Sequence record: DRR378314_1453
Length of the DNA stretch: 33,126 bases
Direction: 5' to 3' (one strand)
Below, one piece after another: positions 9,417-33,126 of the stretch (its first letter is position 1; every line of letters begins with the position of its first letter). The notes beneath the pieces are model-generated. The model saw nothing but the letters and a program-made list of their open reading frames with translations, was not told the DNA's origin and made no database searches. The position numbers and the translations under genes are program-made.

Positions 9417-10184
9417 ATGAGACCTAATATTCTTGTCATCGCGGGCCACGACCCGTCCGGTGGCGCCGGCATCCACGCCGACATCGAGGCGATCCAAAGC
9501 ACCGGCGGCTTCGCCAGCACGCTGATCACCGCGCTGACGGTACAAAACAGCCGCAAGGTCAGCAGCTTTCAACTGACCCCGCTGGAGCTTCTTGAACAGC
9601 AGGCGGACGCCCTGCTCGCCGATTATGAGTTCCAGGCGGTGAAGATCGGCATGACCGGCTCGGTGGCCACGGTGGAATGGATCGCCCGCCTGCTGGCCCG
9701 CCTGCCCGGCGTGCCCGTGGTCCTGGACCCGGTGCTCGCCGCCGAGTCCGGCGGCAGCCTGGCGCAGGGCGACCTCAACGAGGCCCTGATGGACCGGGTC
9801 GCCCCCCAGGCCACCGTGCTCACGCCCAACCTCCCCGAAGCCGGCCAACTGAGCGGCGAAACAGGGGTGGCCGAGGCGGGCGCCGCGCTCACCCGGCGCT
9901 GCGGCCGCGCGGTGCTGGTGACCGGGACCCACGACGACACCGACCAGGTCGCCAACCACCTGTTCCAGGGCGAGCACCACCGCCAATGGGAATGGCCGCG
10001 CCTGCCGGAGGTGTACCATGGCTCCGGCTGCTCGCTGGCCTCGGCGATCGCCAGCCTGCTGGCCCGCGGCCTGCCCCTGGAGGACGCCGTCGGCGACGCC
10101 CAGGCGTGGCTGCACCGCACCCTGCAGCACGCTTGGCGGCCCGGCGGCGGCCAGTTCGTACCGGACCGGAGCCTGACACCATGA
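9417..10184 (+). CDS. thiD: hydroxymethylpyrimidine/phosphomethylpyrimidine kinase
   Basis: IAGHDPSGGAGIHADI, VLDPVL, TPNLPEA, YHGSGCSLAS. Confidence 0.92.
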   Translation: MRPNILVIAGHDPSGGAGIHADIEAIQSTGGFASTLITALTVQNSRKVSSFQLTPLELLEQQADALLADYEFQAVKIGMTGSVATVEWIARLLARLPGVPVVLDPVLAAESGGSLAQGDLNEALMDRVAPQATVLTPNLPEAGQLSGETGVAEAGAALTRRCGRAVLVTGTHDDTDQVANHLFQGEHHRQWEWPRLPEVYHGSGCSLASAIASLLARGLPLEDAVGDAQAWLHRTLQHAWRPGGGQFVPDRSLTP

Positions 10185-10837
10185 GCCAGCCCCTGCAGGG
10201 CCTCTACGCCATCACCGATCCGCAGCTGACGCCCGGCGACCGCGTGCTCAGCGCCGCCGAAGCGGCCCTGCGCGGCGGCGCCACGCTGCTGCAGTACCGC
10301 GACAAACCCGCCGACGCCGACACCCGCCGCCACCGGGCCGCGCGGCTGGCCCTGCTGTGCAAGGACTACGGCGCGCGCTTTATCGTCAACGACGACGCCG
10401 CCCTGGCGGCGGAAGTGGAAGCCGACGGCGTGCACCTGGGCCAGAGCGACGGCGCGGTCGGCCGCGCGCGCATGCTGCTCGGCGACGACAAGCTGATCGG
10501 CGTGTCCTGCCATGGTCGTCTTGATCTGGCGCAAAAAGCCGCCGACGAGGGCGCCGACTATCTCGCCCTGGGCCGCTTTTTCGAATCGCGCACCAAGCCG
10601 GGCGCGCCGCCCGCGTCCCTGGACACCCTGCGCGAAGCACGCCGCCGCTTCTCCCTGCCGCTGGTGGCGATCGGCGGAGTGAATCCGCATAATGCCCGGC
10701 AACTGATCGAGGCCGGCGCCGACCTGGTGGCCGTTATCCACGCCCTGTTCGGCCACGCCGACGACGCCGACGTGGAAGCCGCCGCCCGGCGGCTGCACGC
10801 CGCCTTCCCGGCGCCCCCCTTCAAGGAGTCCCAATGA
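10181..10837 (+). CDS. thiE: thiamine phosphate synthase
   Basis: [39 protein letters not shown] overlaps with thiD and hemL. Confidence 0.95.
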
Positions 10838-19800: not shown

Positions 19801-20091
19801 GAAAAACCCCTTTCCTGTGGCCTGGGTGTCGTTATAATCCCGTGGTTTCGCCACGCAATGCGTGCGCGGGCAAGGGAACGCCCCCGCTTCGCAAGCCGCG
19901 CCAACAGCGAATCTCGCCGGAAAAACCGCGACTGTGCTGAATAGTGACAAGGCTTGCAATAAAGCGGTAAGGTCGAAGGTTACACTATTATCTGTCCTGG
20001 ATTGGGCGGCCCTGTGCAAGGGCGGCTGTCGCCTGCAGGGATCTGGGCTCTTAGGTAGCGAGTCGTGACTATGTTAAGGGAGTTGATCAAA

Positions 20092-20680
20092 ATGGCCACC
20101 GGTAGCAAGAGCAAGAAGAAAACGGCCAGCAAGGCGGGCAGCGCGGCTTCCAAAAAAGCCACCACGAAAACGACGACGGCTAAAAAAGCGGTCGCCAAGA
20201 AAGCGGCCGTAAAGAAGGCCCCGGCTAAAAAAGCCGCCGCCAAGACCACCCCGAAACGCGCCACGGCCGCCCCCACCAGGAAAACCACCGCTACCAAAGC
20301 GGCCGCCAAAAAGGCGACCGCGAAAAAAGCCGCGGTAAAGAAACCGGCGGCGAAGAAGACCACGGTGAAAAAAGCCGCAACCGCTCCGGCCAAGAAAGCC
20401 GCCAGCAAAAAGCCGGCGAGCAAACCGGCGGCCAAAAAGGCCGCAGTGAAGAAGGCCGCAGTGAAGAAGACCGCCGCGAAAAAGCCCACGGCGAAGAAAG
20501 CCGCCGTGAAGAAAGCCGCGACCGCTAAATCCGCGACAACGCCGAAAGCACCGGCCAAACAGAGCGCGGCCCAAAAGGCGCCGGCAAAAACCGCCGCCGG
20601 CAAAGCCGCCAAACCCGTCGCCAAAAAGGCGGCGGCGAAGAAAAGCACCGCTCGGAAGGCTACCGCCGCGCCGGCCACGA
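20092..20680 (+). repeat. low-complexity KKAA/PAKK repeats in the dksA 5' region
   Basis: Recurrent AAKK, KKAAVKK and PAKK peptides, including an exact 15-bp tandem duplication AAGGCCGCAGTGAAG at 20437-20466. Confidence 0.9.
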
Positions 20681-21255
20681 ACCCCAATCGTCCGGCCTCC
20701 GCCCAACCGAGCAGCACGCGTTCCCCGGGGACCGCCAGGAGGGCTACCGGCAGCATGGACAGGCCGCCGTCCCGTTCTCCATCTTCCAATCAGGTGACAT
20801 CCAAGGTGAAGAAATCCGCATCCTCCGCCTCCAAGGCGGAAACGCTCATTCATGGTTTTACGCCTTACACGCCCAACCAAGGCGAGGAGTACATGAACGA
20901 AGCACAGCGCGCCCATTTCCGTCAGATTCTGCTGGCCTGGCGCCAGGAACTGATGGAGGAAGCCGACCGCACCATGCACCACCTCCAGGACGAAGTGGCC
21001 AACCTGCCGGACCCGGCCGACCGGGCCACCCAGGAAGAAGAATTCGCTCTGGAGCTGCGCACCCGCGACCGCGAGCGCAAGCTTCTCAAGAAGATCGAAA
21101 AAGCGCTCGACCAGATCGACAAGGACGATTACGGCTTCTGTGATGCCTGCGGCATCGAAATCGGCATCCGCCGCCTGGAAGCCCGCCCCACCGCCGAGCT
21201 CTGCATCGACTGCAAGGAACTGGCGGAAATCAAGGAAAAACAGCTGGCCGGGTGA
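20092..21255 (+). CDS. dksA: RNA polymerase-binding factor DksA with long N-terminal Lys/Ala-rich extension
   Basis: C-terminal EEYMNE..., DPADRA coiled-coil tip, CDAC...CIDC zinc finger; AAGGGAG SD before ATG 20092; sfsA/dksA/gluQ synteny. Confidence 0.93.
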   Translation: MATGSKSKKKTASKAGSAASKKATTKTTTAKKAVAKKAAVKKAPAKKAAAKTTPKRATAAPTRKTTATKAAAKKATAKKAAVKKPAAKKTTVKKAATAPAKKAASKKPASKPAAKKAAVKKAAVKKTAAKKPTAKKAAVKKAATAKSATTPKAPAKQSAAQKAPAKTAAGKAAKPVAKKAAAKKSTARKATAAPATNPNRPASAQPSSTRSPGTARRATGSMDRPPSRSPSSNQVTSKVKKSASSASKAETLIHGFTPYTPNQGEEYMNEAQRAHFRQILLAWRQELMEEADRTMHHLQDEVANLPDPADRATQEEEFALELRTRDRERKLLKKIEKALDQIDKDDYGFCDACGIEIGIRRLEARPTAELCIDCKELAEIKEKQLAG

Positions 21256-22139: not shown

Positions 22140-22316
22140 ATGTACACCGACCGGCTGCTGATCATTTTTATTCTCGGCACCTATCTGTTGTCACCGTCCC
22201 TGATCGACTGGTGGAGCGAAGGCGGCCGCGCCTGGTACCGCCCCTATCTGGTCTGGCTGGGGCTGATCGCATTGAGCTACTGGATCGCCAGGAGTCGGGA
22301 TGTCGATGGCCTATAG
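22140..22316 (+). CDS. cbrX: CbrX-like 58-aa membrane peptide
   Basis: Hand translation MYTDRLLIIFILGTYLLSPSLIDWWSEGGRAWYRPYLVWLGLIALSYWIARSRDVDGL; overlaps the cbrA start by 17 nt; SPxxxDWW and AWYRPY as recalled from Pseudomonas CbrX. Below the ORF-track size cutoff. Confidence 0.85.
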   Translation: MYTDRLLIIFILGTYLLSPSLIDWWSEGGRAWYRPYLVWLGLIALSYWIARSRDVDGL

Positions 22317-25251
22317 TGTCAGCGATCTGATTCTGATCGCCGGCGCCTACCTGCTGTTTCTGTTCCTGGTGGCGTGGATCACCGAGAAGGGCTGGATCCC
22401 GGCGCGTCTGGTACGCCACCCGGCGGTCTATGTGTTTTCCCTGGGGGTCTACGCCAGCGCCTGGGCGATCTACGGCTCGGTGGGCTACGCCCACGACTAC
22501 GGCTACAACTTCCTCGCCTACTTCCTGGGCATCTCCGGCGTGTTCCTGCTGGCGCCGATACTGCTGGCGCCGATCCTGCGGCTCACCACCACCTATCAGC
22601 TCAGTTCCCTGGCCGACCTGTTCGCGTTCCGCTACCGCAGCCGCCTGGCCGGCGCGCTGACCACCGTGATGATGGTGGTCGGCATGCTGCCGCTGCTGTC
22701 GATGCAGATAAAAGCGGTGGCGGAGTCGATCCAGATTCTCACCGGCGAGCCGGACCCGGCCTGGGTGGCGTTCTGGTTCTGCCTGCTGATCACGCTGTTC
22801 GCGATTCTGTTCGGCGCCCGCCATGCCACCGCCCGCGAACGCCACGAAGGCCTGGTGGTGGCCATCGCCACCGAGTCCCTGATCAAGGTGGCGGCGTTCG
22901 CGGCGGTGGCGCTGATCGGCCTGTTCGGCGTGTTCGACGGGCCCAGCGGCCTGGGCGTGTGGCTGGACCAGCACCCGGAGATGCTGTCGCGCCTGTACGC
23001 GCCGCTGCAGGACAACACCTGGCACAGCCTGATCATGGCGTTTTTCGTGTCCGCCGTGGTGATGCCGCACATGTTCCACATGGCGTTCACGGAAAACCTT
23101 AACCCGCGCGCCCTGGTGTCGGCGAGCTGGGGGCTGCCGCTGCTGTTTCTGGTGATGGCGCTGTGCGTGCCGATCATTCTGTGGGCCGCGCTGGCCAGCA
23201 ACGCCACCACCTCGCCGGACTACTTCACACTCGGCGTGGGCCTGGCCAATGGTGGCGGCGGCGCGGTGCTGGGGTATCTGGCCGGGCTGGCCGGCGCCAG
23301 CGGCATGCTGATCGTCGCCATCCTGTCGTTGTCGGGCATGTGCCTGAACCATCTGATCCTGCCCGCCAGCCCGCTCAATTCCGCCCAGGACCTGTACCGG
23401 AATCTGCTCTGGACCCGGCGCGTGCTGATCGCCGCGATTCTCGCCCTGGCCTATGTGTTCTACCGCCTGGCCGGGCCCAATCATTCGGCGGTGGAACTGG
23501 GCGTGTTGTCGTTCGTGGCCGCGCTGCAATTCGTGCCCGGCCTGATCGGCACCCTGTTCTGGCCGTCCGGCAACCGCAACGGCCTGTACGCGGGGCTGTG
23601 CGCCGGCTTCGCAGTGTGGCTGGCGGCGCTGCTGCTGCCCATGGTGTACCCGGACTGGCACGCCCAGCACCTGGTGGAAATGTTCGGCCTGCGCCGGGCC
23701 GAAGGCGCCGACCACTGGAACCAGGTGGCGATCGTGTCGGTGGCCCTCAACGGCGTGGTGTACGCGATCATCTCCATCGTCACGCCCATGTCCCGGTCGG
23801 AGCGCACCGCCGCCGAAGCCTGCGCGGTGGACAGCCTGCGCCGCCCCTACCGCTGGGATCTCAGCGCGCAGACCGTGGACGAGTTCGTCACCGCGCTGAG
23901 CGGGCCGCTGGGGCCCGGCACCGCCGCCCGGGAAGTGGACATGGCCCTCGGCGACCTGCAACTGAATGCCAACGAAACACGGCCCTACGCGCTGCGGCGT
24001 CTGCGTGACCAACTGGAGACCAACCTCTCCGGCCTGCTGGGGCCGTCCGTGGCCCATCAGCTGATGGACGACAACCTGCCCTACAAGCCCCAGGACGGCG
24101 AATCCAGCGAGGACATCCAGTTCATCGAATCGCGCCTGGAACAGTACCGCGACCGCCTCTCCGGACTGGCCGCGGAGCTGGACAGCCTGCGCCGTTTTCA
24201 CCGCCAGACCCTGCTGGAGCTGCCCATGGGCGTGATTTCCCTGGGCGGCGACGGCGAGATCATCGGCTGGAACCGGGCGGTGGAGGACCTCACCGGCATC
24301 GACGCCGAGCACACCATCGGCTCGCGGCTGGCGCATCTGCCGGCGCCCTGGGGCGACCTGCTCTCGGAGTTCGGGCGCGGCGAAGCCATGCACGAGCCGC
24401 AGCGCCATCTGGAGGTGGACGGCCAGTCCCGCTGGATCAGCCTGCACAAATCGCTGATCCAGAGCCCGGGCCCCAGCGAGCAGGCCGGCGGCCTGGTGCT
24501 GGTGCTGGAGGACATCACCGAACTGCGGCAGATGGAATCCCACCTGGCCCACAACGAGCGCCTGGCGTCCATCGGCCGGCTGGCGGCGGGCGTGGCCCAC
24601 GAGATCGGCAACCCGGTGACCGCCATCGCCTGTCTGGCACAGAACCTGGACGGCGAATGCGACCGCGAGGAGCAGACTCTCAGCGCCAGCCAGATCATGG
24701 AGCAGACCCGCCGCATCACCCGTATCGTCGAATCCCTGGTCACGTTCAGCCACTCCGGCGGCCTGCGAGATACCATCCAGGGTCCGGTGAACGTGGCCGC
24801 CACCGCCGCCGAGGCCATTGCGCTGCTACTGCTCGACCCGGACCATCGGGCACAGCGATTTGAGAACCACTGCGCGCCGGATCTGGAAGTGATCGGCGAC
24901 CCCCAGCGCCTGCTGCAGGTGTTCGTCAACCTGCTCGGCAACGCGGCGGACGCCAGCGATGCGGGCGACGCGATCCGCGTGCTCAGTGAAGACCACGGCG
25001 ACAAGGTGCGCATCCAGGTGGAGGACCACGGCCACGGCATTCCCGAGGAATTGCGTGCCGCCCTGTTCGAGCCGTTTGTTACCAGCAAACCGCCCGGCAG
25101 AGGCACGGGGCTGGGTCTGGCGCTGGTTTACAGTATTATCGAGGACCACCACGGCACGGTATGGGTGGAAAGCCCCATCGACGGCGACCGTGGAACCCGC
25201 TTTATCATCGAGCTGCCGTGCTTCAGCGCCGGCGACTTGAGCACGCATTAA
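22300..25251 (+). CDS. cbrA: CbrA-like sensor histidine kinase (SLC5/SSS transporter, STAC, PAS, HisKA, HATPase)
   Basis: ~500-aa polytopic SSS-like N-terminus (SLGVYASAWAIYGSVG), PAS region, LAAGVAHEIGNP, QVFVNLLGNA, GTGLGL; position between gluQ and cbrB/pcnB. Confidence 0.92.
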   Translation: MSMAYSVSDLILIAGAYLLFLFLVAWITEKGWIPARLVRHPAVYVFSLGVYASAWAIYGSVGYAHDYGYNFLAYFLGISGVFLLAPILLAPILRLTTTYQLSSLADLFAFRYRSRLAGALTTVMMVVGMLPLLSMQIKAVAESIQILTGEPDPAWVAFWFCLLITLFAILFGARHATARERHEGLVVAIATESLIKVAAFAAVALIGLFGVFDGPSGLGVWLDQHPEMLSRLYAPLQDNTWHSLIMAFFVSAVVMPHMFHMAFTENLNPRALVSASWGLPLLFLVMALCVPIILWAALASNATTSPDYFTLGVGLANGGGGAVLGYLAGLAGASGMLIVAILSLSGMCLNHLILPASPLNSAQDLYRNLLWTRRVLIAAILALAYVFYRLAGPNHSAVELGVLSFVAALQFVPGLIGTLFWPSGNRNGLYAGLCAGFAVWLAALLLPMVYPDWHAQHLVEMFGLRRAEGADHWNQVAIVSVALNGVVYAIISIVTPMSRSERTAAEACAVDSLRRPYRWDLSAQTVDEFVTALSGPLGPGTAAREVDMALGDLQLNANETRPYALRRLRDQLETNLSGLLGPSVAHQLMDDNLPYKPQDGESSEDIQFIESRLEQYRDRLSGLAAELDSLRRFHRQTLLELPMGVISLGGDGEIIGWNRAVEDLTGIDAEHTIGSRLAHLPAPWGDLLSEFGRGEAMHEPQRHLEVDGQSRWISLHKSLIQSPGPSEQAGGLVLVLEDITELRQMESHLAHNERLASIGRLAAGVAHEIGNPVTAIACLAQNLDGECDREEQTLSASQIMEQTRRITRIVESLVTFSHSGGLRDTIQGPVNVAATAAEAIALLLLDPDHRAQRFENHCAPDLEVIGDPQRLLQVFVNLLGNAADASDAGDAIRVLSEDHGDKVRIQVEDHGHGIPEELRAALFEPFVTSKPPGRGTGLGLALVYSIIEDHHGTVWVESPIDGDRGTRFIIELPCFSAGDLSTH

Positions 25252-25266
25252 AAAAGGAACGGCACC

Positions 25267-26592
25267 ATGAGCCATATCCTGATCGTTGAAGACGAGCCGG
25301 TGATTCGCGGCGCCCTGCGCAAACTACTGGAACGGCACGATCACTCCGTGGCTGAGGCGGAATCCGTGGAGCAGGCCCGCGAGAACGGCCTCACCCAGTG
25401 CGACCTGATCATCAGCGACCTGCGCCTGCCCGGCGAGCCCGGCACCGCGCTGATCGAGCTGGCGGCCCCGGTGCCGGTGCTGATCATGACCAGCTACGCC
25501 AGTCTGCGCTCGGCGGTGGACGCCATGCGCGAAGGCGCCGTGGATTACATCCCCAAGCCGTTCGACCACGATGAAATGCTGATGTCGGTGCAGCGGGTGC
25601 TCAAGGAAGGCCGCATCAACCGGGGCAACCAGGCGCTGCGCCAGGACATGGAGCGCACTTACCCGGTTCGCTCCATGATCGGTGACTGCGAACCGATGCG
25701 CGATCTCAAGCACCGCATCAGCCGCGTCGGCCCCACCGACACCCCGGTGCTGATTCTCGGCGAGGCCGGCACCGGCAAGGAGCTCACCGCGCGCGCCCTG
25801 CACGAACACAGCGAGCGCGCCGCCGCGCCGCTGGTAACGGTGCACTGCGCCGCTCTGCCCAAGACTCTGCAACTGGAGGAACTGTTCGGCAACGACAGCC
25901 AACCCGGCCGCATCGAGAACGCCGACGGCGGCACCTTCTTTCTTGACGAAGTGGGCGAGCTGTCCAACGAGGCGCAAAGCCGCCTGCTGACCCTGCTGGA
26001 ACAAGGGGAGATCCACCGCCAGGGCTCGCTGTCGCCGCGCCGGGTGGACGTGCGCGTGATCGCCAGCAGCCAGATGGATTTGCCGGCCCGGGTCACCGAC
26101 GGTCGCTTCCGCGAGGACCTGTATTACCGCCTCAACGTGATGGAGCTGGAGCTGCCGCCCCTGCGCGAGCGCGAGGACGATATTGAGCAACTGGCCGCCA
26201 CCCTGCTGACGCGCAGCTGCGAAAAGCTCAGCCGTGGGGTGCTGTACTTCACCGACGCCGCGCTCGCCGCCATGCGCGCCTACAGCTGGCCGGGCAACGT
26301 GCGAGAGCTGGAAAACGTGATCGAGCGGGCGGTGATTCTCACCGAAGAGGACGGCATCGGCCCCGCGCAACTGGGCCTGAACCCCAACCGCACCCCGCAG
26401 CGGGTCAGCCGGGCCAGCCTGGACCCCTCCGAGGATCTGTCCCTGGAGGACTATTTCACCCGTTTCGTACTGGAAAACCAGGACAGCATGACCGAGACCG
26501 AACTGGCCCAGAAGCTGGGGATCAGCCGGAAAAGCCTGTGGGAACGCCGGCAACGCCTGGGCATTCCACGCCGCAAGAGCACCCGCCGGTGA
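25267..26592 (+). CDS. cbrB: CbrB-like NtrC-family response regulator lacking the GAFTGA motif
   Basis: REC (ILIVEDE, DLIISDLRLPG), Walker A GEAGTGKE, Walker B FFLDE, FREDLYYRL, WPGNVRELEN, C-terminal LSLEDYF...MTETELAQKLGISRKSLWERRQRLGIPR typical of CbrB. Confidence 0.92.
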   Translation: MSHILIVEDEPVIRGALRKLLERHDHSVAEAESVEQARENGLTQCDLIISDLRLPGEPGTALIELAAPVPVLIMTSYASLRSAVDAMREGAVDYIPKPFDHDEMLMSVQRVLKEGRINRGNQALRQDMERTYPVRSMIGDCEPMRDLKHRISRVGPTDTPVLILGEAGTGKELTARALHEHSERAAAPLVTVHCAALPKTLQLEELFGNDSQPGRIENADGGTFFLDEVGELSNEAQSRLLTLLEQGEIHRQGSLSPRRVDVRVIASSQMDLPARVTDGRFREDLYYRLNVMELELPPLREREDDIEQLAATLLTRSCEKLSRGVLYFTDAALAAMRAYSWPGNVRELENVIERAVILTEEDGIGPAQLGLNPNRTPQRVSRASLDPSEDLSLEDYFTRFVLENQDSMTETELAQKLGISRKSLWERRQRLGIPRRKSTRR

Positions 26593-26646
26593 ATTTCAGT
26601 GCTTGCTTTTGCGGTTTCGATCAGTGCGGAACGGGGCCGGGAGGGG

Positions 26647-26698
26647 TGTTACCCCAGAAGTGTTACCTTACTACACAGGGCGGTAACAGGTGTGCTAC
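26647..26698. promoter_or_regulatory. CbrB-type upstream activating sequences
   Basis: TGTTAC (26647-52), TGTTACC-N14-GGTAACA palindrome (26661-88) and a degenerate TGCTAC (26693-98). Confidence 0.8.
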
Positions 26699-26740
26699 CG
26701 CGCCGGAGCTTATAACTGTTCACATTTCTTCATTTTTTTA

Positions 26741-26753
26741 TAAGTGCTTGATT
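26741..26753 (-). promoter_or_regulatory. IHF binding site
   Basis: Minus strand AATCAAGCACTTA matches WATCAANNNNTTR exactly, in an AT-rich context between the UAS and the promoter. Confidence 0.75.
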
Positions 26754-26773
26754 TGAAAGGGTTTAACAACTTG

Positions 26774-26802
26774 TTGCAATGGAAAAACCATCCATGCACT
26801 AT
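26774..26802 (+). promoter_or_regulatory. putative sigma70-type promoter of the CrcZ-like sRNA
   Basis: TTGCAA (26774-79), 17-bp spacer, CACTAT (26797-802); predicted +1 near 26809-26810, at the base of the first stem. Confidence 0.5.
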
Positions 26803-26809
26803 GAATCCC

Positions 26810-27001
26810 ACGCCACATAAGGAAAACAACAACGGCGTTAAGGCTCATAATAAGAACAAGAAAAGAAGAAGAATAAACTTGGAGCCAAAACAAGATGCCG
26901 TAACAAAAATTGGTTATGGCGCAAGGCAGAAAAAAACACAAACAATAACAACAACAGAATCAGCGCATAGGGGATCACAACCGAGGTTGTGGTCCCTTTT
27001 T
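26810..27001 (+). ncRNA. CrcZ-like Hfq/Crc-sequestering small RNA (~190 nt)
   Basis: Sits at the crcZ locus (cbrB-pcnB). AANAANAA tracts at 26825-32, 26849-76 and 26941-54; short GC stems; ends in an intrinsic terminator. The 5' end is inferred. Confidence 0.8.
26971..27001 (+). terminator. rho-independent terminator of the sRNA
   Basis: GGGATCACAAC-CGAG-GTTGTGGTCCC 11-bp stem (one G-U) followed by TTTTT. Confidence 0.9.
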
Positions 27002-27084
27002 ACTTTCCAGGCCCGCCATATCCCTCACGCCCGGCGGACCGCCCGCCCTTTCTCCAGATCGAATAACCAGCCCGTGGCAAAAAG

Positions 27085-27093
27085 TGCTACCAT
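27085..27093 (+). promoter_or_regulatory. extended -10 promoter for the pcnB operon
   Basis: TG-C-TACCAT downstream of the sRNA terminator and 35 nt before ATG 27129. Confidence 0.5.
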
Positions 27094-27128
27094 GCCGCCT
27101 TTCATTCCGTCAGGACGTTTTTTGCTCA

Positions 27129-28643
27129 ATGGCACGTAACCTTTCACCGAGGCTTAAAAGCGCCCTTACCTGGCTTGTCATGCCCGTGGTCTGGGCCGAC
27201 GCAATTCTTACCTGGGCCCTGGCCCGGCTCGCCGGCATCGTCACCTACCCGCTACGCCTGCTCGGCCGCCCTCTGAGAACATTGACCGCCGTGGCGAGCA
27301 AAGGTTCCAGCGGCGGCACTGCCCTGCCCGAGGCGCGGATCATCCCCCGGGACCAGCATCCGATCTCCCGCAAGCAGATCTCCAGAGCGGCGCTGAATGT
27401 GCTGTATGGGTTGCACGAGCAGGGTTTTCAAGCCTTTCTGGTGGGCGGCTGCCTGCGCGACCTGCTGTGCGGCCGCGAGCCCAAGGACTTCGACGTGGTC
27501 ACCGACGCCACGCCGGAGCAGGTCCAGCGCCTGTTCAAGCGCAGCCGTATCATCGGCCGCCGCTTCCAGATCGTGCATGTGCGTTTCGGCCGCGAAGTGA
27601 TCGAAGTCTCCACGTTCCGCGCCTTTCAACGGGACGACCAGGAGCTCGACCGCGACCAGCACTCCGCCCACGAGGAGACCGGGCTGGTACTGCGCGACAA
27701 CACCTGGGGCAGCATCGAGGAAGACGCCCTGCGGCGCGACTTCACCATCAATGCGCTCTACTACAATATCGCCGACTTCGCGCTGTACGACTTCGTCGGC
27801 AGCCGGCGCGCCATCGAGCGCGGCGAGATCAGCCTGATCGGCGATCCCGAACAGCGCTACCGGGAAGACCCGGTGCGCATGCTGCGCGCCGCCCGCTTCG
27901 CCGCCAAGCTGGGCTTCCGGCTGGACCAGAAGGCAAGCCGCAAGATTCCCGAACTGGCCGAGCTGCTGCTGCAGGTGCCGCCGGCGCGGCTGTTCGACGA
28001 GGTGCTGAAACTGTTCCTCAGCGGCCACGCCCGCGCCTCCATGCAGCAACTGCAGGACCTGGGCCTGTTCCATTTCCTGTTCCCGGAAACCGACCGCAGC
28101 CTGAAGGGCCCCCAGGGCAAGGTCTGGGAGAAGCTGATCCTGGCCGCCATGGACAACACCGACCGGCGGCTGGCGCAGGATAAACCGGTGACGCCGGCGT
28201 TCATCTTCGCCGTACTGTTGTGGCCGGTGACCGTGGCGCGCCTGGAAAAGCTGCGCGCCGACGGCATGCCGCCGGCTCCGGCCCTGCACAAGGCCGCCGG
28301 CTGGGCCCTGAACCAGCAGGTTCAGCACACCGCCATTCCGCGCCGCTTCTCCACCGTGATGCGGGAAATGTGGGACCTGCAGGACCGGCTGCCACGCCGT
28401 GGCGGCCGCCGCGCCGAGGCGCTGGTGCAGCATCCCCGTTTCCGGGCCGCCTACGATTTCCTGCTGCTGCGCGAGCAGGCCGGTGAACTGCCCGCCGGCC
28501 TGGGTGACTGGTGGACACGCTACCAGGACGCCGACGAGGACCAGCGCGAAGCGATGGTGCAGGCGCTCGGCCCCAACCAGGGCGCCAGCGGCGGTGGCAA
28601 GCGCCGCCGGCGCCGGCGCAAACCCGCCAACAGCCAGGGCTGA
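27129..28643 (+). CDS. pcnB: poly(A) polymerase I
   Basis: VGGCLRD, PKDFDVVT, IIGRRFQIVHV (PAP signature), RRDFTINAL, EDPVRMLR, HPRFRAAYDFL, basic C-terminal tail. Start uncertain. Confidence 0.95.
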   Translation: MARNLSPRLKSALTWLVMPVVWADAILTWALARLAGIVTYPLRLLGRPLRTLTAVASKGSSGGTALPEARIIPRDQHPISRKQISRAALNVLYGLHEQGFQAFLVGGCLRDLLCGREPKDFDVVTDATPEQVQRLFKRSRIIGRRFQIVHVRFGREVIEVSTFRAFQRDDQELDRDQHSAHEETGLVLRDNTWGSIEEDALRRDFTINALYYNIADFALYDFVGSRRAIERGEISLIGDPEQRYREDPVRMLRAARFAAKLGFRLDQKASRKIPELAELLLQVPPARLFDEVLKLFLSGHARASMQQLQDLGLFHFLFPETDRSLKGPQGKVWEKLILAAMDNTDRRLAQDKPVTPAFIFAVLLWPVTVARLEKLRADGMPPAPALHKAAGWALNQQVQHTAIPRRFSTVMREMWDLQDRLPRRGGRRAEALVQHPRFRAAYDFLLLREQAGELPAGLGDWWTRYQDADEDQREAMVQALGPNQGASGGGKRRRRRRKPANSQG

Positions 28644-32072: not shown

Positions 32073-32319
32073 ATCCAGCCCCTTGATGCTACCCCCTCCC
32101 CGCGCGCGCATCTCTTCGCCTTTGGTAGTAGACGTCCCTTTCCCAGCGCCGCTAGCGGTACACTGTCCTCAATGGCATTTGATAAGCCGGTCTTTAGACA
32201 ATAGTTTAATTCCAGGCGTATCGCCGTTGGCACGATAATACGGCGCCGTATTACCCCCGCGGCTTCAGGGCGGGGCGGCCAGACAATAAACATCAGCGGG
32301 CAGTACGAAGGAGGCTGAC

Positions 32320-33126
32320 ATGTCCGAGCAAAAGATCTACCCGGTTCCGGAGGCGTTTAAACGCCAGACACTGATGGATCGGCAAACCTATGATCGCTGG
32401 TATCAGCAATCCATCGACGATCCCGATACGTTCTGGGCCGAGCGCGCGGACCAACTGCTCGACTGGCAGACCCGCTGGGACACGGTCAGCGACTGGGACT
32501 TCAAGGAAGGCCGCGCGGCCTGGTTCCAGGGCGGCAAGCTCAACGCCTGCTACAACTGCGTCGACCGCCACCTGCCCGAGCGCGCCCAGCAGACCGCGAT
32601 CATCTGGGAGGGCGACGAGCCCGACCAGGAAAAGCACATCACCTACCAGGAACTGTTCGAGCAGGTGTCGCGCTTCGCCAACGCCCTGAAGGACCGCGGC
32701 GTGAAAAAAGGCGACCGGGTGGTGATCTACATGCCGATGATCCCGGAAGCGGCCTACGCCATGCTGGCCTGCGCCCGCATCGGCGCGATTCACTCGGTGG
32801 TGTTCGGCGGCTTCTCGCCGGAAGCCCTCAAGGACCGCATCCAGAACGCCGGCGCCTGCGCCCTGATCACCGCCGACGAAGGCGTGCGCGGCGGCAAGGT
32901 GGTGGCACTGAAAGCCAACGCCGACAAGGCCCTGAGCGGCTGCGATTCGGTCCACACCTGCCTGGTGGTGGAACGCACCGGCGGCGATATCGACTGGGAC
33001 GACCAGCGTGACATCTGGTACCACGACGCGCTCGCCAAGGCGGACGCGAACTGCGAACCGGAATGGGTCGACAGCGAGGACCCGCTGTTCACCCTGTACA
33101 CCTCCGGCTCCACCGGCAAGCCCAAG
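32320..33126 (+). CDS. acs: acetyl-CoA synthetase (5' partial, runs off the window)
   Basis: AAGGAGG SD, ATG 32320; MSEQKIYPVP...LNACYNCVDRH...YMPMIPEA...ARIGAIHSVVFGGFS...LYTSGSTGKPK. Not in the ORF track because no stop lies in the window. Confidence 0.96.
   Translation, partial: MSEQKIYPVPEAFKRQTLMDRQTYDRWYQQSIDDPDTFWAERADQLLDWQTRWDTVSDWDFKEGRAAWFQGGKLNACYNCVDRHLPERAQQTAIIWEGDEPDQEKHITYQELFEQVSRFANALKDRGVKKGDRVVIYMPMIPEAAYAMLACARIGAIHSVVFGGFSPEALKDRIQNAGACALITADEGVRGGKVVALKANADKALSGCDSVHTCLVVERTGGDIDWDDQRDIWYHDALAKADANCEPEWVDSEDPLFTLYTSGSTGKPK

Follow-up and report, generated by a model that had tools for sequence, protein, structure and literature searches.

Can a response regulator of the sigma-54 activator family that has lost the loop used for contact with sigma-54 still work as an activator, and at what kind of promoter would it do so? 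The question is raised by a stretch of 33,126 nucleotides (nt) from sequence record DRR378314_1453, called the window below, in which an open reading frame (ORF) on the plus strand, 25267..26592, encodes a 441-residue protein that synteny and full-length similarity identify as an orthologue of CbrB. The original prediction, made from the letters of the window, held that an in-frame loss of about 9 amino acids had removed the GAFTGA loop from this protein, and that it cannot activate sigma-54 promoters. We consider it probable that CbrB in this lineage has become a sigma-54-independent, enhancer-type activator of a promoter of the sigma-70 family, comparable to NtrC of Rhodobacter capsulatus. 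We favor this reading because of the loop deletion itself, the absence of a -24/-12 element at the adjacent small RNA (sRNA) gene, a conserved -35/-10-like motif found there, a retained upstream palindrome with a box resembling the site for integration host factor (IHF), and the purifying selection acting on the gene.

The L1 loop of CbrB in the window and its family

25267..26592, plus strand: cbrB orthologue, 441 amino acids, with receiver, AAA+ domain (PF00158), CbrB-type helix-turn-helix (HTH) tail and truncated L1 loop (Pfam and synteny)
25759..25782, plus strand: Walker A, GEAGTGKE, residues 165-172, intact (motif reading)
25891..25905, plus strand: site of the 9-residue deletion in the L1 (GAFTGA) loop, N209-P213, the exact junction being ambiguous within these codons (gap against NtrC1)
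25936..25953, plus strand: Walker B, FFLDEV, residues 224-229, DE intact in the genus of the window (motif reading)

Nucleotides 25861-25950 encode residues K199-E228 of CbrB, reading ...LPKTLQLEELFGNDSQPGRIENADGGTFFLDE, and the loop region proper is EELFG-NDSQPGRIEN-ADGGTFFLDE. A phmmer alignment to Aquifex NtrC1 (4l4u, 1ny5) contains a single gap of nine residues, exactly facing 'kgaftgavs'. MAFFT alignment with CbrB orthologues also gives a gap of nine columns, with a placement that shifts slightly among three alignments. The spacing from ELFG to ADGGT is 10 residues, compared to 19 in three Pseudomonas-type CbrB proteins. By both kinds of gap, therefore, the predicted loss is one of exactly nine residues. 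The features said to remain intact (receiver Asp, Walker A and B, arginine finger, sensor II, and HTH) are likewise all present in the ORF: beyond the Walker motifs, we found receiver Asp51, FREDLYYRL (281-289), GNVRELEN (343-350), and the CbrB-type HTH tail. As a member of the bacterial enhancer-binding proteins (bEBP, PF00158), then, the protein has an AAA+ domain with Walker A and B, arginine fingers, and sensor II, and it lacks GAFTGA. Pfam recognizes Response_reg (9.4e-21), Sigma54_activat (PF00158, 1e-48), and AAA_lid_14 (2.7e-21). An AlphaFold2 model has a mean predicted local distance difference test score of 80, with values of 87-95 in the AAA+ core, and its AAA+ domain superposes on those of NtrC1, FlrC, and FleQ with target-normalised TM-scores of 0.85-0.91 and root-mean-square deviations of 1.5-2.6 Å. 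The best overall Foldseek match to the model is NtrX (5m7p), another protein without GAFTGA; VpsR (7v2b) was matched as well.

Membership in the CbrB group is indicated by cbrA before the gene, an A-rich sRNA and pcnB after it, the HTH tail, and TGTTAC/GTAACA sub-sites. A peptide-pattern search of genome contigs yielded 80 loci, 77 of which were unrelated NtrC-family genes, and only L011-L013, from Pseudomonas and Phytopseudomonas, were kept. CbrB at these three loci is 53-54% identical to the window ORF over residues 1-438, with Rfam CrcZ downstream at 234-350 bits. The C-terminal tail LSLEDYF..FVLE.Q..M.ETELA.KLGISRK.LWERRQRLGIPR is common to all aligned CbrB rows, including those three, and the window ORF groups in one clade with CbrB orthologues. 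Judging by the names on records of its close relatives, the window belongs to the Alcanivorax / Alloalcanivorax group. Near-identical proteins are labelled 'sigma-54-dependent transcriptional regulator' or 'NR(I)' in their records, and the NCBIfam model for TyrR finds the window protein at 2.6e-56, well under the model's cutoff.

The gene was detected at E <= 1e-100 in 69 of the 70 genomes of the GTDB family, the sole exception being a genome that is 64% complete. At the residue level, 56 family loci from nine genera were read, and not one contains G[AS]FTGA. The nine-residue deletion, which leaves a 10-residue linker, is shared by the window and every one of the 30 loci read in two genera, 19 from the window's own genus (g1) and 11 from a second Alcanivorax-like genus (g2); matches of equal length represent the other 13 g2 genomes. 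Near-identical 441-residue CbrB proteins are found on many contigs, with P0006 on 199 and P0005 on 62, for example. Because an identical linker recurs in 30 loci and near-identical proteins appear on hundreds of contigs, the deletion is not an assembly artefact, an explanation that the original prediction had itself raised. The remaining 26 family loci, from seven genera, have substitutions or deletions of 1, 2 or 7 residues:

g3: GELSGA, SHLTGL
g4: 1-residue deletion
g5: G/DALPGA or DAVPGA
g6: GAFEGA
g7: STLEGA, GAFAAA, GAFAGA
g8: 2-residue deletion
g9: GAV(A/S)GR, 2-residue deletion, 7-residue deletion

A loop that is defective in different ways across 56 of 56 loci is what one would expect if a sigma-54 contact no longer in use had come under relaxed selection.

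Of 63 CbrB orthologues from outside the family, 60 have the canonical loop. This set consists of 40 loci from across the order, eight further loci from family f22, ten from lower-scoring genomes, two diverged loci, and the three from Pseudomonas. The order-wide loci represent 33 families, and 39 of them have GAFTGA or GSFTGA, while L168 has an 8-residue deletion; among the further f22 loci six are canonical, and L187 and L188 carry the deletion. Since the 40 order-wide loci were the better-scoring matches, the ten loci from lower-scoring genomes were added, and these proved canonical without exception, as did both diverged CbrB-like genes, taken from families with no match at E 1e-110, and all three Pseudomonas loci. 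Further loop-less lineages were sought in the ten lower-scoring genomes and in five 'no match' genomes, and every CbrB-like hit was canonical.

In a sample of 301 genomes from the order, 214 have a match to CbrB at E <= 1e-110, and these belong to dozens of families. Orthologues are therefore widespread in the order by this survey, whereas CbrAB is described in PMC6296734 and PMC8871633 as exclusive to Pseudomonadaceae. The orthologues L147-L213 have the CbrB-specific tail, and in most of them a sigma-54 promoter and an A-rich sRNA come next. The diverged CbrB-like genes L212 (f19) and L213 (f9) have GAFTGA and a downstream -24/-12 site; one of the two has a receiver-like N-terminus with poor similarity near the phospho-acceptor, and the other, matched from query residue 134 onward, may lack a receiver.

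The cbrB gene is under purifying selection: six pairwise comparisons inside and across g1 and g2 gave dN/dS values (the ratio of nonsynonymous to synonymous substitution rates) of 0.14-0.20. Walker B conforms to hhhDE in all 48 canonical rows. Within the family, its DE is kept in g1 (20/20 rows), g2 (10/10), g8 (6/6), g9 (3/3), and five of eight g5 rows, and is replaced by DD, ED, ND, SK, VG or AE in g3, g4, g6, g7, and the other three g5 rows. The sensor II arginine is lost in g3. The receiver Asp is invariant in all rows. Such a pattern of decay fits a protein that would have been freed from ATP hydrolysis for sigma-54 remodelling and would still signal through phosphorylation.

Some observations on single residues and copies may be added. 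The sensor-I triad (residues 267-269) is SSQ in the window protein and ATH in all listed GAFTGA-bearing orthologues; the change from ATH is to SSQ in g1 and g2, to ASQ in g4, and to STQ in the independent deletion clade of f22, and this His-to-Gln replacement may be a convergent change that accompanies loop loss. One g2 genome (G019, an assembly of 230 contigs that is 82% complete) has a cbrB copy, L118, with one in-frame TAA and an ORF of 286 amino acids, which could be a pseudogene or a sequencing error. The g4 protein L142 has the longest branch in the family (0.78) and DD in Walker B, and g4 is the only family genus read that has no sRNA after cbrB, with protein-coding sequence found downstream instead.

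The adjacent small RNA and its promoter

26647..26698, plus strand: predicted CbrB-type upstream activating sequence, with half-site TGTTAC (26647-26652), palindrome (26661-26688), and half-site-like TGCTAC (26693-26698)
26741..26753, plus strand: putative IHF-like box TAAGTGCTTGATT, the reverse complement of WATCAANNNNTTR, with 0 mismatches, starting at -68
26774..26802, plus strand: proposed core promoter, with -35 TTGCAA (26774-26779), 17-bp spacer, and -10 CACTAT (26797-26802), from family conservation
26809..27001, plus strand: CrcZ-like A-rich sRNA of about 193 nt with an intrinsic terminator, predicted to start at 26808-26810 (A-rich words and conservation)

The non-coding island downstream of cbrB is AT-rich, with 38% G+C against 67% for the window. 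We scored sigma-54 promoters as a weighted match to TGGCACG-N4-TTGCW, with a maximum of 21, no more than 700 nt after cbrB, and counted scores of 18.5 or more as strong. The best score in the window is 16, versus 19-20 in canonical loci, and the consensus allowing up to three mismatches has no match on the plus strand between the cbrB stop and the sRNA. Over the whole window the same pattern gives 126 matches where 154 are expected, a count that is uninformative. In 44 of 48 canonical-loop loci (L183 being classed as canonical), a TGGCAC-N5-xTGCW element scoring 18.5 or more precedes a CrcZ-like sRNA; 7 of 10 further canonical loci are strong by this measure, and both diverged canonical loci have TGGCAC-N5-xTGC(C/A). 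Among the 60 loci with a defective loop, a single one (L106) reaches 18.5, and its hit sits within a palindrome resembling repetitive extragenic palindromic (REP) elements, some 270 nt upstream of the sRNA promoter. Shuffled controls (1100 trials) reached 18.5 in 2.3%, 19 in 0.5%, and 20 in 0%.

The REP-like element, a long inverted repeat (GCTGTGGGAAGCTTGCTTGCAAGCGAAT...ATTCGCTTGCAAGCAAGCTTCCCACAGC), was seen in L106 and L110, which belong to one g1 subgroup, about 60-150 nt past the cbrB stop and before the upstream activating site. It yields a chance sigma-54-like match.

What the family has in place of a -24/-12 element is TTGC(A/C)(A/T)-N17-CAnnAT, found in 54 of 57 loci. The -35 hexamer is TTGCAA in 39 of these, TTGCAT in 13, and TTGCCA in two, and the -10 hexamer is CACTAT in 35 and CAGGAT in seven, with other forms in the rest. 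The three loci without the motif are the copy broken by a stop codon, the g4 locus with no adjacent sRNA, and one that meets a contig end.

Upstream of this core, the palindrome TGTTAC-N16-GTAACA (26661-26688) is centered at about -134.5 from the predicted start of the sRNA, which was taken to lie 7 nt beyond the -10 hexamer, at 26809 in the window. The center falls at -133.5 to -136 in g1, g2, g3, g5, and g9, and about one helical turn closer in g6, g7, and g8. Loci bearing GAFTGA have a palindrome of like kind and position, with centers near -115, -135, -146 or -156, in steps of roughly a helical turn. The nearest genome, G001, has 77% of sampled words in common with the window and contains TGTTAC-N13-17-GTAAC only once; a reversed control pattern has 1-2 matches, so this frequency is uninformative. 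The box YAANNNNTTGATW, presumably the reverse complement of the IHF consensus, starts at -68 with no more than two mismatches in 51 of 54 family loci, and a comparable IHF-like box is found at -58 or -68 in sigma-54-type loci. The family thus seems to have kept the upstream architecture and swapped only the core promoter. For Pseudomonas putida, PMC6296734 describes crcZ, crcY, and PP2810 as activated by CbrB from upstream sub-sites, together with IHF and sigma-N.

The sRNA region of the window contains 11 AANAANAA words, compared to a mean of 1.2 in 1000 shuffles, a density like that of CrcZ (14 in 393 nt). It has the context of a CrcZ-type RNA, in that it lies between cbrB and pcnB, has CbrB-type sites upstream, carries multiple AANAANAA words, and ends in an intrinsic terminator, the hairpin of which (26969-26998, 13 pairs) is followed by a T run. 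The sRNA recurs in conserved form in eight genera, its terminator stem showing compensatory changes, and RNAalifold applied to the alignment finds the terminator helix only. A GCCAAUGCAGUG box and A-rich repeats are common to the family sRNA and the sRNA of the nearest canonical family, f29, which argues that the sRNAs are homologous across the two promoter types. At about 193 nt, and unlike Pseudomonas CrcZ, the window sRNA does not match Rfam CrcZ (RF01675): neither that model nor any other Rfam family reaches its gathering score in the window, only chance-level hits appear at E up to 10 in 26400-27400, and CrcZ has no hit in ten family and f22 loci, while the Pseudomonas loci score as given above.

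Contigs from RNA libraries cover the sRNA, and one of 169 nt, from run X15, spans 26808-26976 and counts as a weak hint. In run X9, a marine metatranscriptome, the 3' part of a g2-type sRNA (window 26922-26967) is matched by a contig of 120 nt whose mean word depth is 1242, versus 129 for the contig covering the flanks; this is a hint of an abundant sRNA, although contig depths cannot rank expression. CrcZ is reported in PMC4063720 to sequester Hfq, and Hfq is present in G001.

A second switch, and readings of the locus

Genus g30, of family f22, contains both forms of the locus. Six of its genomes have GAFTGA and TGGCACG(G/C)..ATGC(C/T/G) before a small A-rich RNA, while in three others the L1 loop carries a deletion (ELFGSDRTSCGVIE and variants) and TTG(T/C)CG-N17-TTAACT precedes the same RNA. 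On comparison of these genomes, loop loss with a promoter swap arose a second time, independently, within g30. In the three deletion loci the IHF-like box is gone and the half-sites lie nearer the promoter, which points to a different solution from that of the Alcanivorax-type family. When the deletion is mapped on a phylogeny, as had been suggested at the outset along with alignment to Pseudomonas CbrB, maximum-likelihood trees of 75 and 85 rows require two changes of loop state, whether loop columns are kept or removed. In the 75-row tree, with loop columns kept, the family clade and the f22 deletion clade, nested in f22, each have a support of 100 in the Shimodaira-Hasegawa-like approximate likelihood ratio test.

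The sRNA without the -24/-12 element that most canonical loci carry, the family-wide loop defects, and the second coupled switch together support, by comparison, the claim that this CbrB cannot activate sigma-54 promoters. Background on which that claim drew agrees with the literature: Escherichia coli TyrR, with DhaR and HupR, is described in PMC3162934 as lacking a functional GAFTGA and acting at sigma-70 promoters, and Pseudomonas CbrB is described as sigma-N dependent in PMC6296734. Sigma-54 machinery would otherwise still be present in this lineage, to judge from G001, in which rpoN is intact and two other activators have GAFTGA or GSFTGA. For Alcanivorax borkumensis SK2, which has three PF00158 proteins in UniProt, PMC3162934 (supplement file 1, row 607) tabulates two true activators, the same count as in G001.

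Relatives of sigma-54 activators that lack GAFTGA and work with sigma-70 are already known; the present case adds a series of natural decay stages and a promoter converted in place, an event seen twice. The CbrA/CbrB-CrcZ systems of Pseudomonas (P. putida, P. aeruginosa) and Azotobacter have the same order of cbrA, cbrB, sRNA, and pcnB. They also share with the window the CbrB tail, TGTTAC...GTAACA sites some 135 bp upstream of the start, an IHF-type box, and an A-rich sRNA with AANAANAA (described in part in PMC6296734). In Pseudomonas, however, CbrB has GAFTGA and crcZ has TGGCACGCACCCTGCT, whereas the window protein has lost the loop and the core promoter proposed for the window sRNA is of the -35/-10 type. 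Our search of open-access papers and bioRxiv preprints found no more than incidental mention of CbrB or CrcZ in Alcanivorax, and no report of loop loss in CbrB among those that join CbrB and GAFTGA.

R. capsulatus NtrC, which acts from distant upstream sites, belongs to another orthologous group (NtrC, Alphaproteobacteria). Its receiver-AAA+-HTH build and an L1 deletion that removes GAFTGA liken it to the window CbrB, and it is described as activating sigma-70 polymerase with a need for phosphorylation and ATP binding, not hydrolysis (bioRxiv 10.1101/2023.06.06.543975, citing Bowman and Kranz 1998). The same preprint describes Caulobacter NtrC, VpsR, and NtrX as acting at sigma-70 promoters without GAFTGA, and gives the L1 deletion of Caulobacter NtrC as 8 residues, where the window CbrB has lost 9. 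The window promoter differs from the R. capsulatus case in that its sigma-54-type ancestor is visible in sister lineages and its IHF-like box is retained. Caulobacter NtrC, the NtrX of Brucella and other Alphaproteobacteria, and Vibrio cholerae VpsR are, like the window CbrB, bEBP homologues without GAFTGA, but they control other regulons, VpsR has cyclic di-GMP as its signal, and none belongs to a CbrAB-sRNA module. TyrR has ACT and PAS sensory domains and no receiver, binds close to promoters, and mainly represses. Although E. coli TyrR has an AAA+ domain of the sigma-54-activator family with a defective GAFTGA region (PMC3162934), like the window CbrB, it is not an orthologue.

Under the preferred reading, phosphorylated CbrB would still bind and assemble at the distal palindrome, and with DNA bent at the IHF-like box it would act at the sRNA promoter to activate an RNA polymerase that carries a factor of the sigma-70 family. 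Activation would probably need ATP binding for assembly and not the remodelling of sigma-54. The sRNA would then probably titrate Hfq, by analogy with CrcZ. In evolutionary terms, the switch would have occurred at the base of the family; the unused loop would then have decayed genus by genus, with the Walker B glutamate and sensor residues decaying as well in some genera, and the 9-residue deletion would have arisen in the common ancestor of the Alcanivorax-like g1 and g2.

Several findings weigh against this reading or loosen its hold. The proposed promoter is weak, matching the consensus at 7 of 12 positions (4/6 at -35 and 3/6 at -10); conservation alone identified it, and a scan of 26560-27120 for consensus sigma-70 promoters reports 0 sites, the proposed one falling below threshold. 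The start of the sRNA, the sigma class of its promoter, and its dependence on CbrB are predictions, and the distances from regulator sites to promoter in the window depend on that predicted start. The RNA data are assembled Logan contigs, from which no 5' end, strand or level can be read. The association of canonical loop with strong -24/-12 element is incomplete: of the four exceptions among the 48 canonical loci, L153, L157, and L174 have no adjacent sRNA and L177 ends after 359 nt at a contig edge, and three of the ten further canonical loci also lack a strong element. Only two independent contrasts in loop state are available, both in the same direction, for which a sign test gives p = 0.5, and the approximately unbiased (AU) test speaks only marginally (p 0.047) against placing all defective rows in one clade, a group named after the tree had been seen. 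Both rpoN and the other activators were read in G001, which stands in, at 77% of sampled words, for the genome of the window. As to Crc, four PF03372 matches were found in G001, and of the three scanned, one is exonuclease III, one an ExeM/NucH-like nuclease, and one an unnamed protein; none was identified as Crc.

Other explanations would leave CbrB in place and change its role. It might no longer activate at all, serving instead as a palindrome-bound repressor, anti-activator or architectural protein, as the example of TyrR would suggest, with the -35/-10 promoter of the sRNA constitutive or driven by another factor. TyrR and Caulobacter NtrC, both without GAFTGA, are indeed described as repressing too (PMC3162934; bioRxiv 10.1101/2023.06.06.543975), and the loss of the Walker B glutamate and sensor II arginine in some genera means that ATP hydrolysis is not universally required. 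However, a palindrome about 135 bp upstream with a phased IHF-like box has an activation geometry inherited from sigma-54 ancestors and is poorly positioned for repression, the non-consensus -10 (CAnnAT) looks activator-dependent, and the receiver Asp never varies; we regard loss of activation as unlikely. A variant of the preferred reading keeps the same rewiring but assigns the promoter to another member of the sigma-70 family, for example a sigma for stationary phase or stress, in place of the housekeeping sigma-70. The conserved -10 begins with C, not T, and the promoter stays under the sigma-70 scan threshold, as this variant would have it, but TTGCAA and a spacer held strictly at 17 bp are what a housekeeping promoter typically shows, and inspection by eye against consensus sequences, unscored, showed no specific alternative-sigma motif. 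We give this variant slightly less credence than loss of activation.

Two further explanations seem to us very improbable, and about equally so. In one, CbrB would still work with sigma-54 by means of a contact other than the canonical one, at a -24/-12 promoter that has diverged and in which the TTGCA of the -35 hexamer serves as the -12 element. TTGCA does fit the -12 consensus, and an intact rpoN is at hand in G001, but there is no GG 10 nt upstream of that GC in the window or in other genera, and the best sigma-54 score is the 16 of 21 already given. Furthermore, the L1 loop differs in every genus, with four deletion lengths, which leaves no conserved replacement contact, and single F or T changes in GAFTGA are described in PMC3162934 as mostly abolishing activity. 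In the other, the gene is decaying and functionless, or its deletion is a sequencing or assembly error. The in-frame TAA in the g2 genome G019 and the decay of ATPase motifs in some genera could be taken that way; the conservation data contradict it, with dN/dS as low as reported above, the gene kept throughout the family save in one incomplete genome, and an identical deletion in 30 loci and on hundreds of contigs.

The preferred reading, of CbrB as an activator independent of sigma-54, leads to a broader proposal, which we offer tentatively and with slightly more doubt than confidence. The CbrB-sRNA promoter of Alcanivoracaceae would be a sigma-54 enhancer system converted in place, with about 35 bp of core rewritten while the distal site, IHF-type bend, and helical phasing were kept; an AAA+ ring without L1 loops would activate a sigma-70-type polymerase by looping from about -135; and regulator and promoter would have switched together at least twice in marine Pseudomonadales, after which loop and ATPase motifs decayed stepwise. 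If this is true, the transition from sigma-54 to sigma-70 is an easy, repeatable evolutionary path with living intermediates. The family forms a graded natural series on one orthologous promoter, from canonical loop through point-degenerate loops, small deletions, and full deletion to decay of ATPase motifs, and the sigma-54 form survives in sister lineages, even within one genus (g30). With such a series one can test by what means an enhancer-binding AAA+ protein is able to drive a polymerase of the sigma-70 type, and how a regulator and its promoter move jointly from one sigma class to another. Marine oil degradation is dominated by Alcanivorax and its relatives, whose preferences among substrates are likely to be controlled by a CbrAB-sRNA module. 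Regulon predictions that start from the 'sigma-54-dependent' or 'NR(I)' label would seek the wrong promoters.

Neighbouring genes

22300..25251, plus strand: cbrA-like sensor kinase, 983 amino acids (Pfam PAS_4 1.3e-7, HisKA 2.5e-10, HATPase_c 8.8e-26)
27084..28643, plus strand: pcnB, encoding poly(A) polymerase, last gene in the conserved order cbrB-sRNA-pcnB (Pfam PolyA_pol 1.3e-35, PolyA_pol_arg_C 2.1e-44)

The cbrA-like kinase lies immediately 5' of cbrB, as it does in the Pseudomonas loci L011-L013. It has a long N-terminal membrane part followed by PAS, HisKA, and HATPase_c domains, and its N-terminal 600 residues are without any Pfam hit. The gene order in the window is dksA, a gluQ-like synthetase gene, cbrA, cbrB, a 490-bp non-coding stretch (the sRNA), pcnB, folK, and pantothenate genes, which we take to be the order around cbrAB-crcZ in Pseudomonas.

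Two ORFs on the minus strand, 9626-10834 (403 amino acids) and 32296-33024 (243 amino acids), have no Pfam family at E <= 1e-5; the latter has a low third-position G+C of 0.64 and may not be a gene. The dksA ORF, 20065-21252 on the plus strand, encodes 396 amino acids from its first start, with DksA domains at 281-388. Residues 71-231 match Pfam HC2 (histone H1-like, rich in Lys and Ala) at 2e-12, reflecting either a true N-terminal extension or an over-long ORF call.

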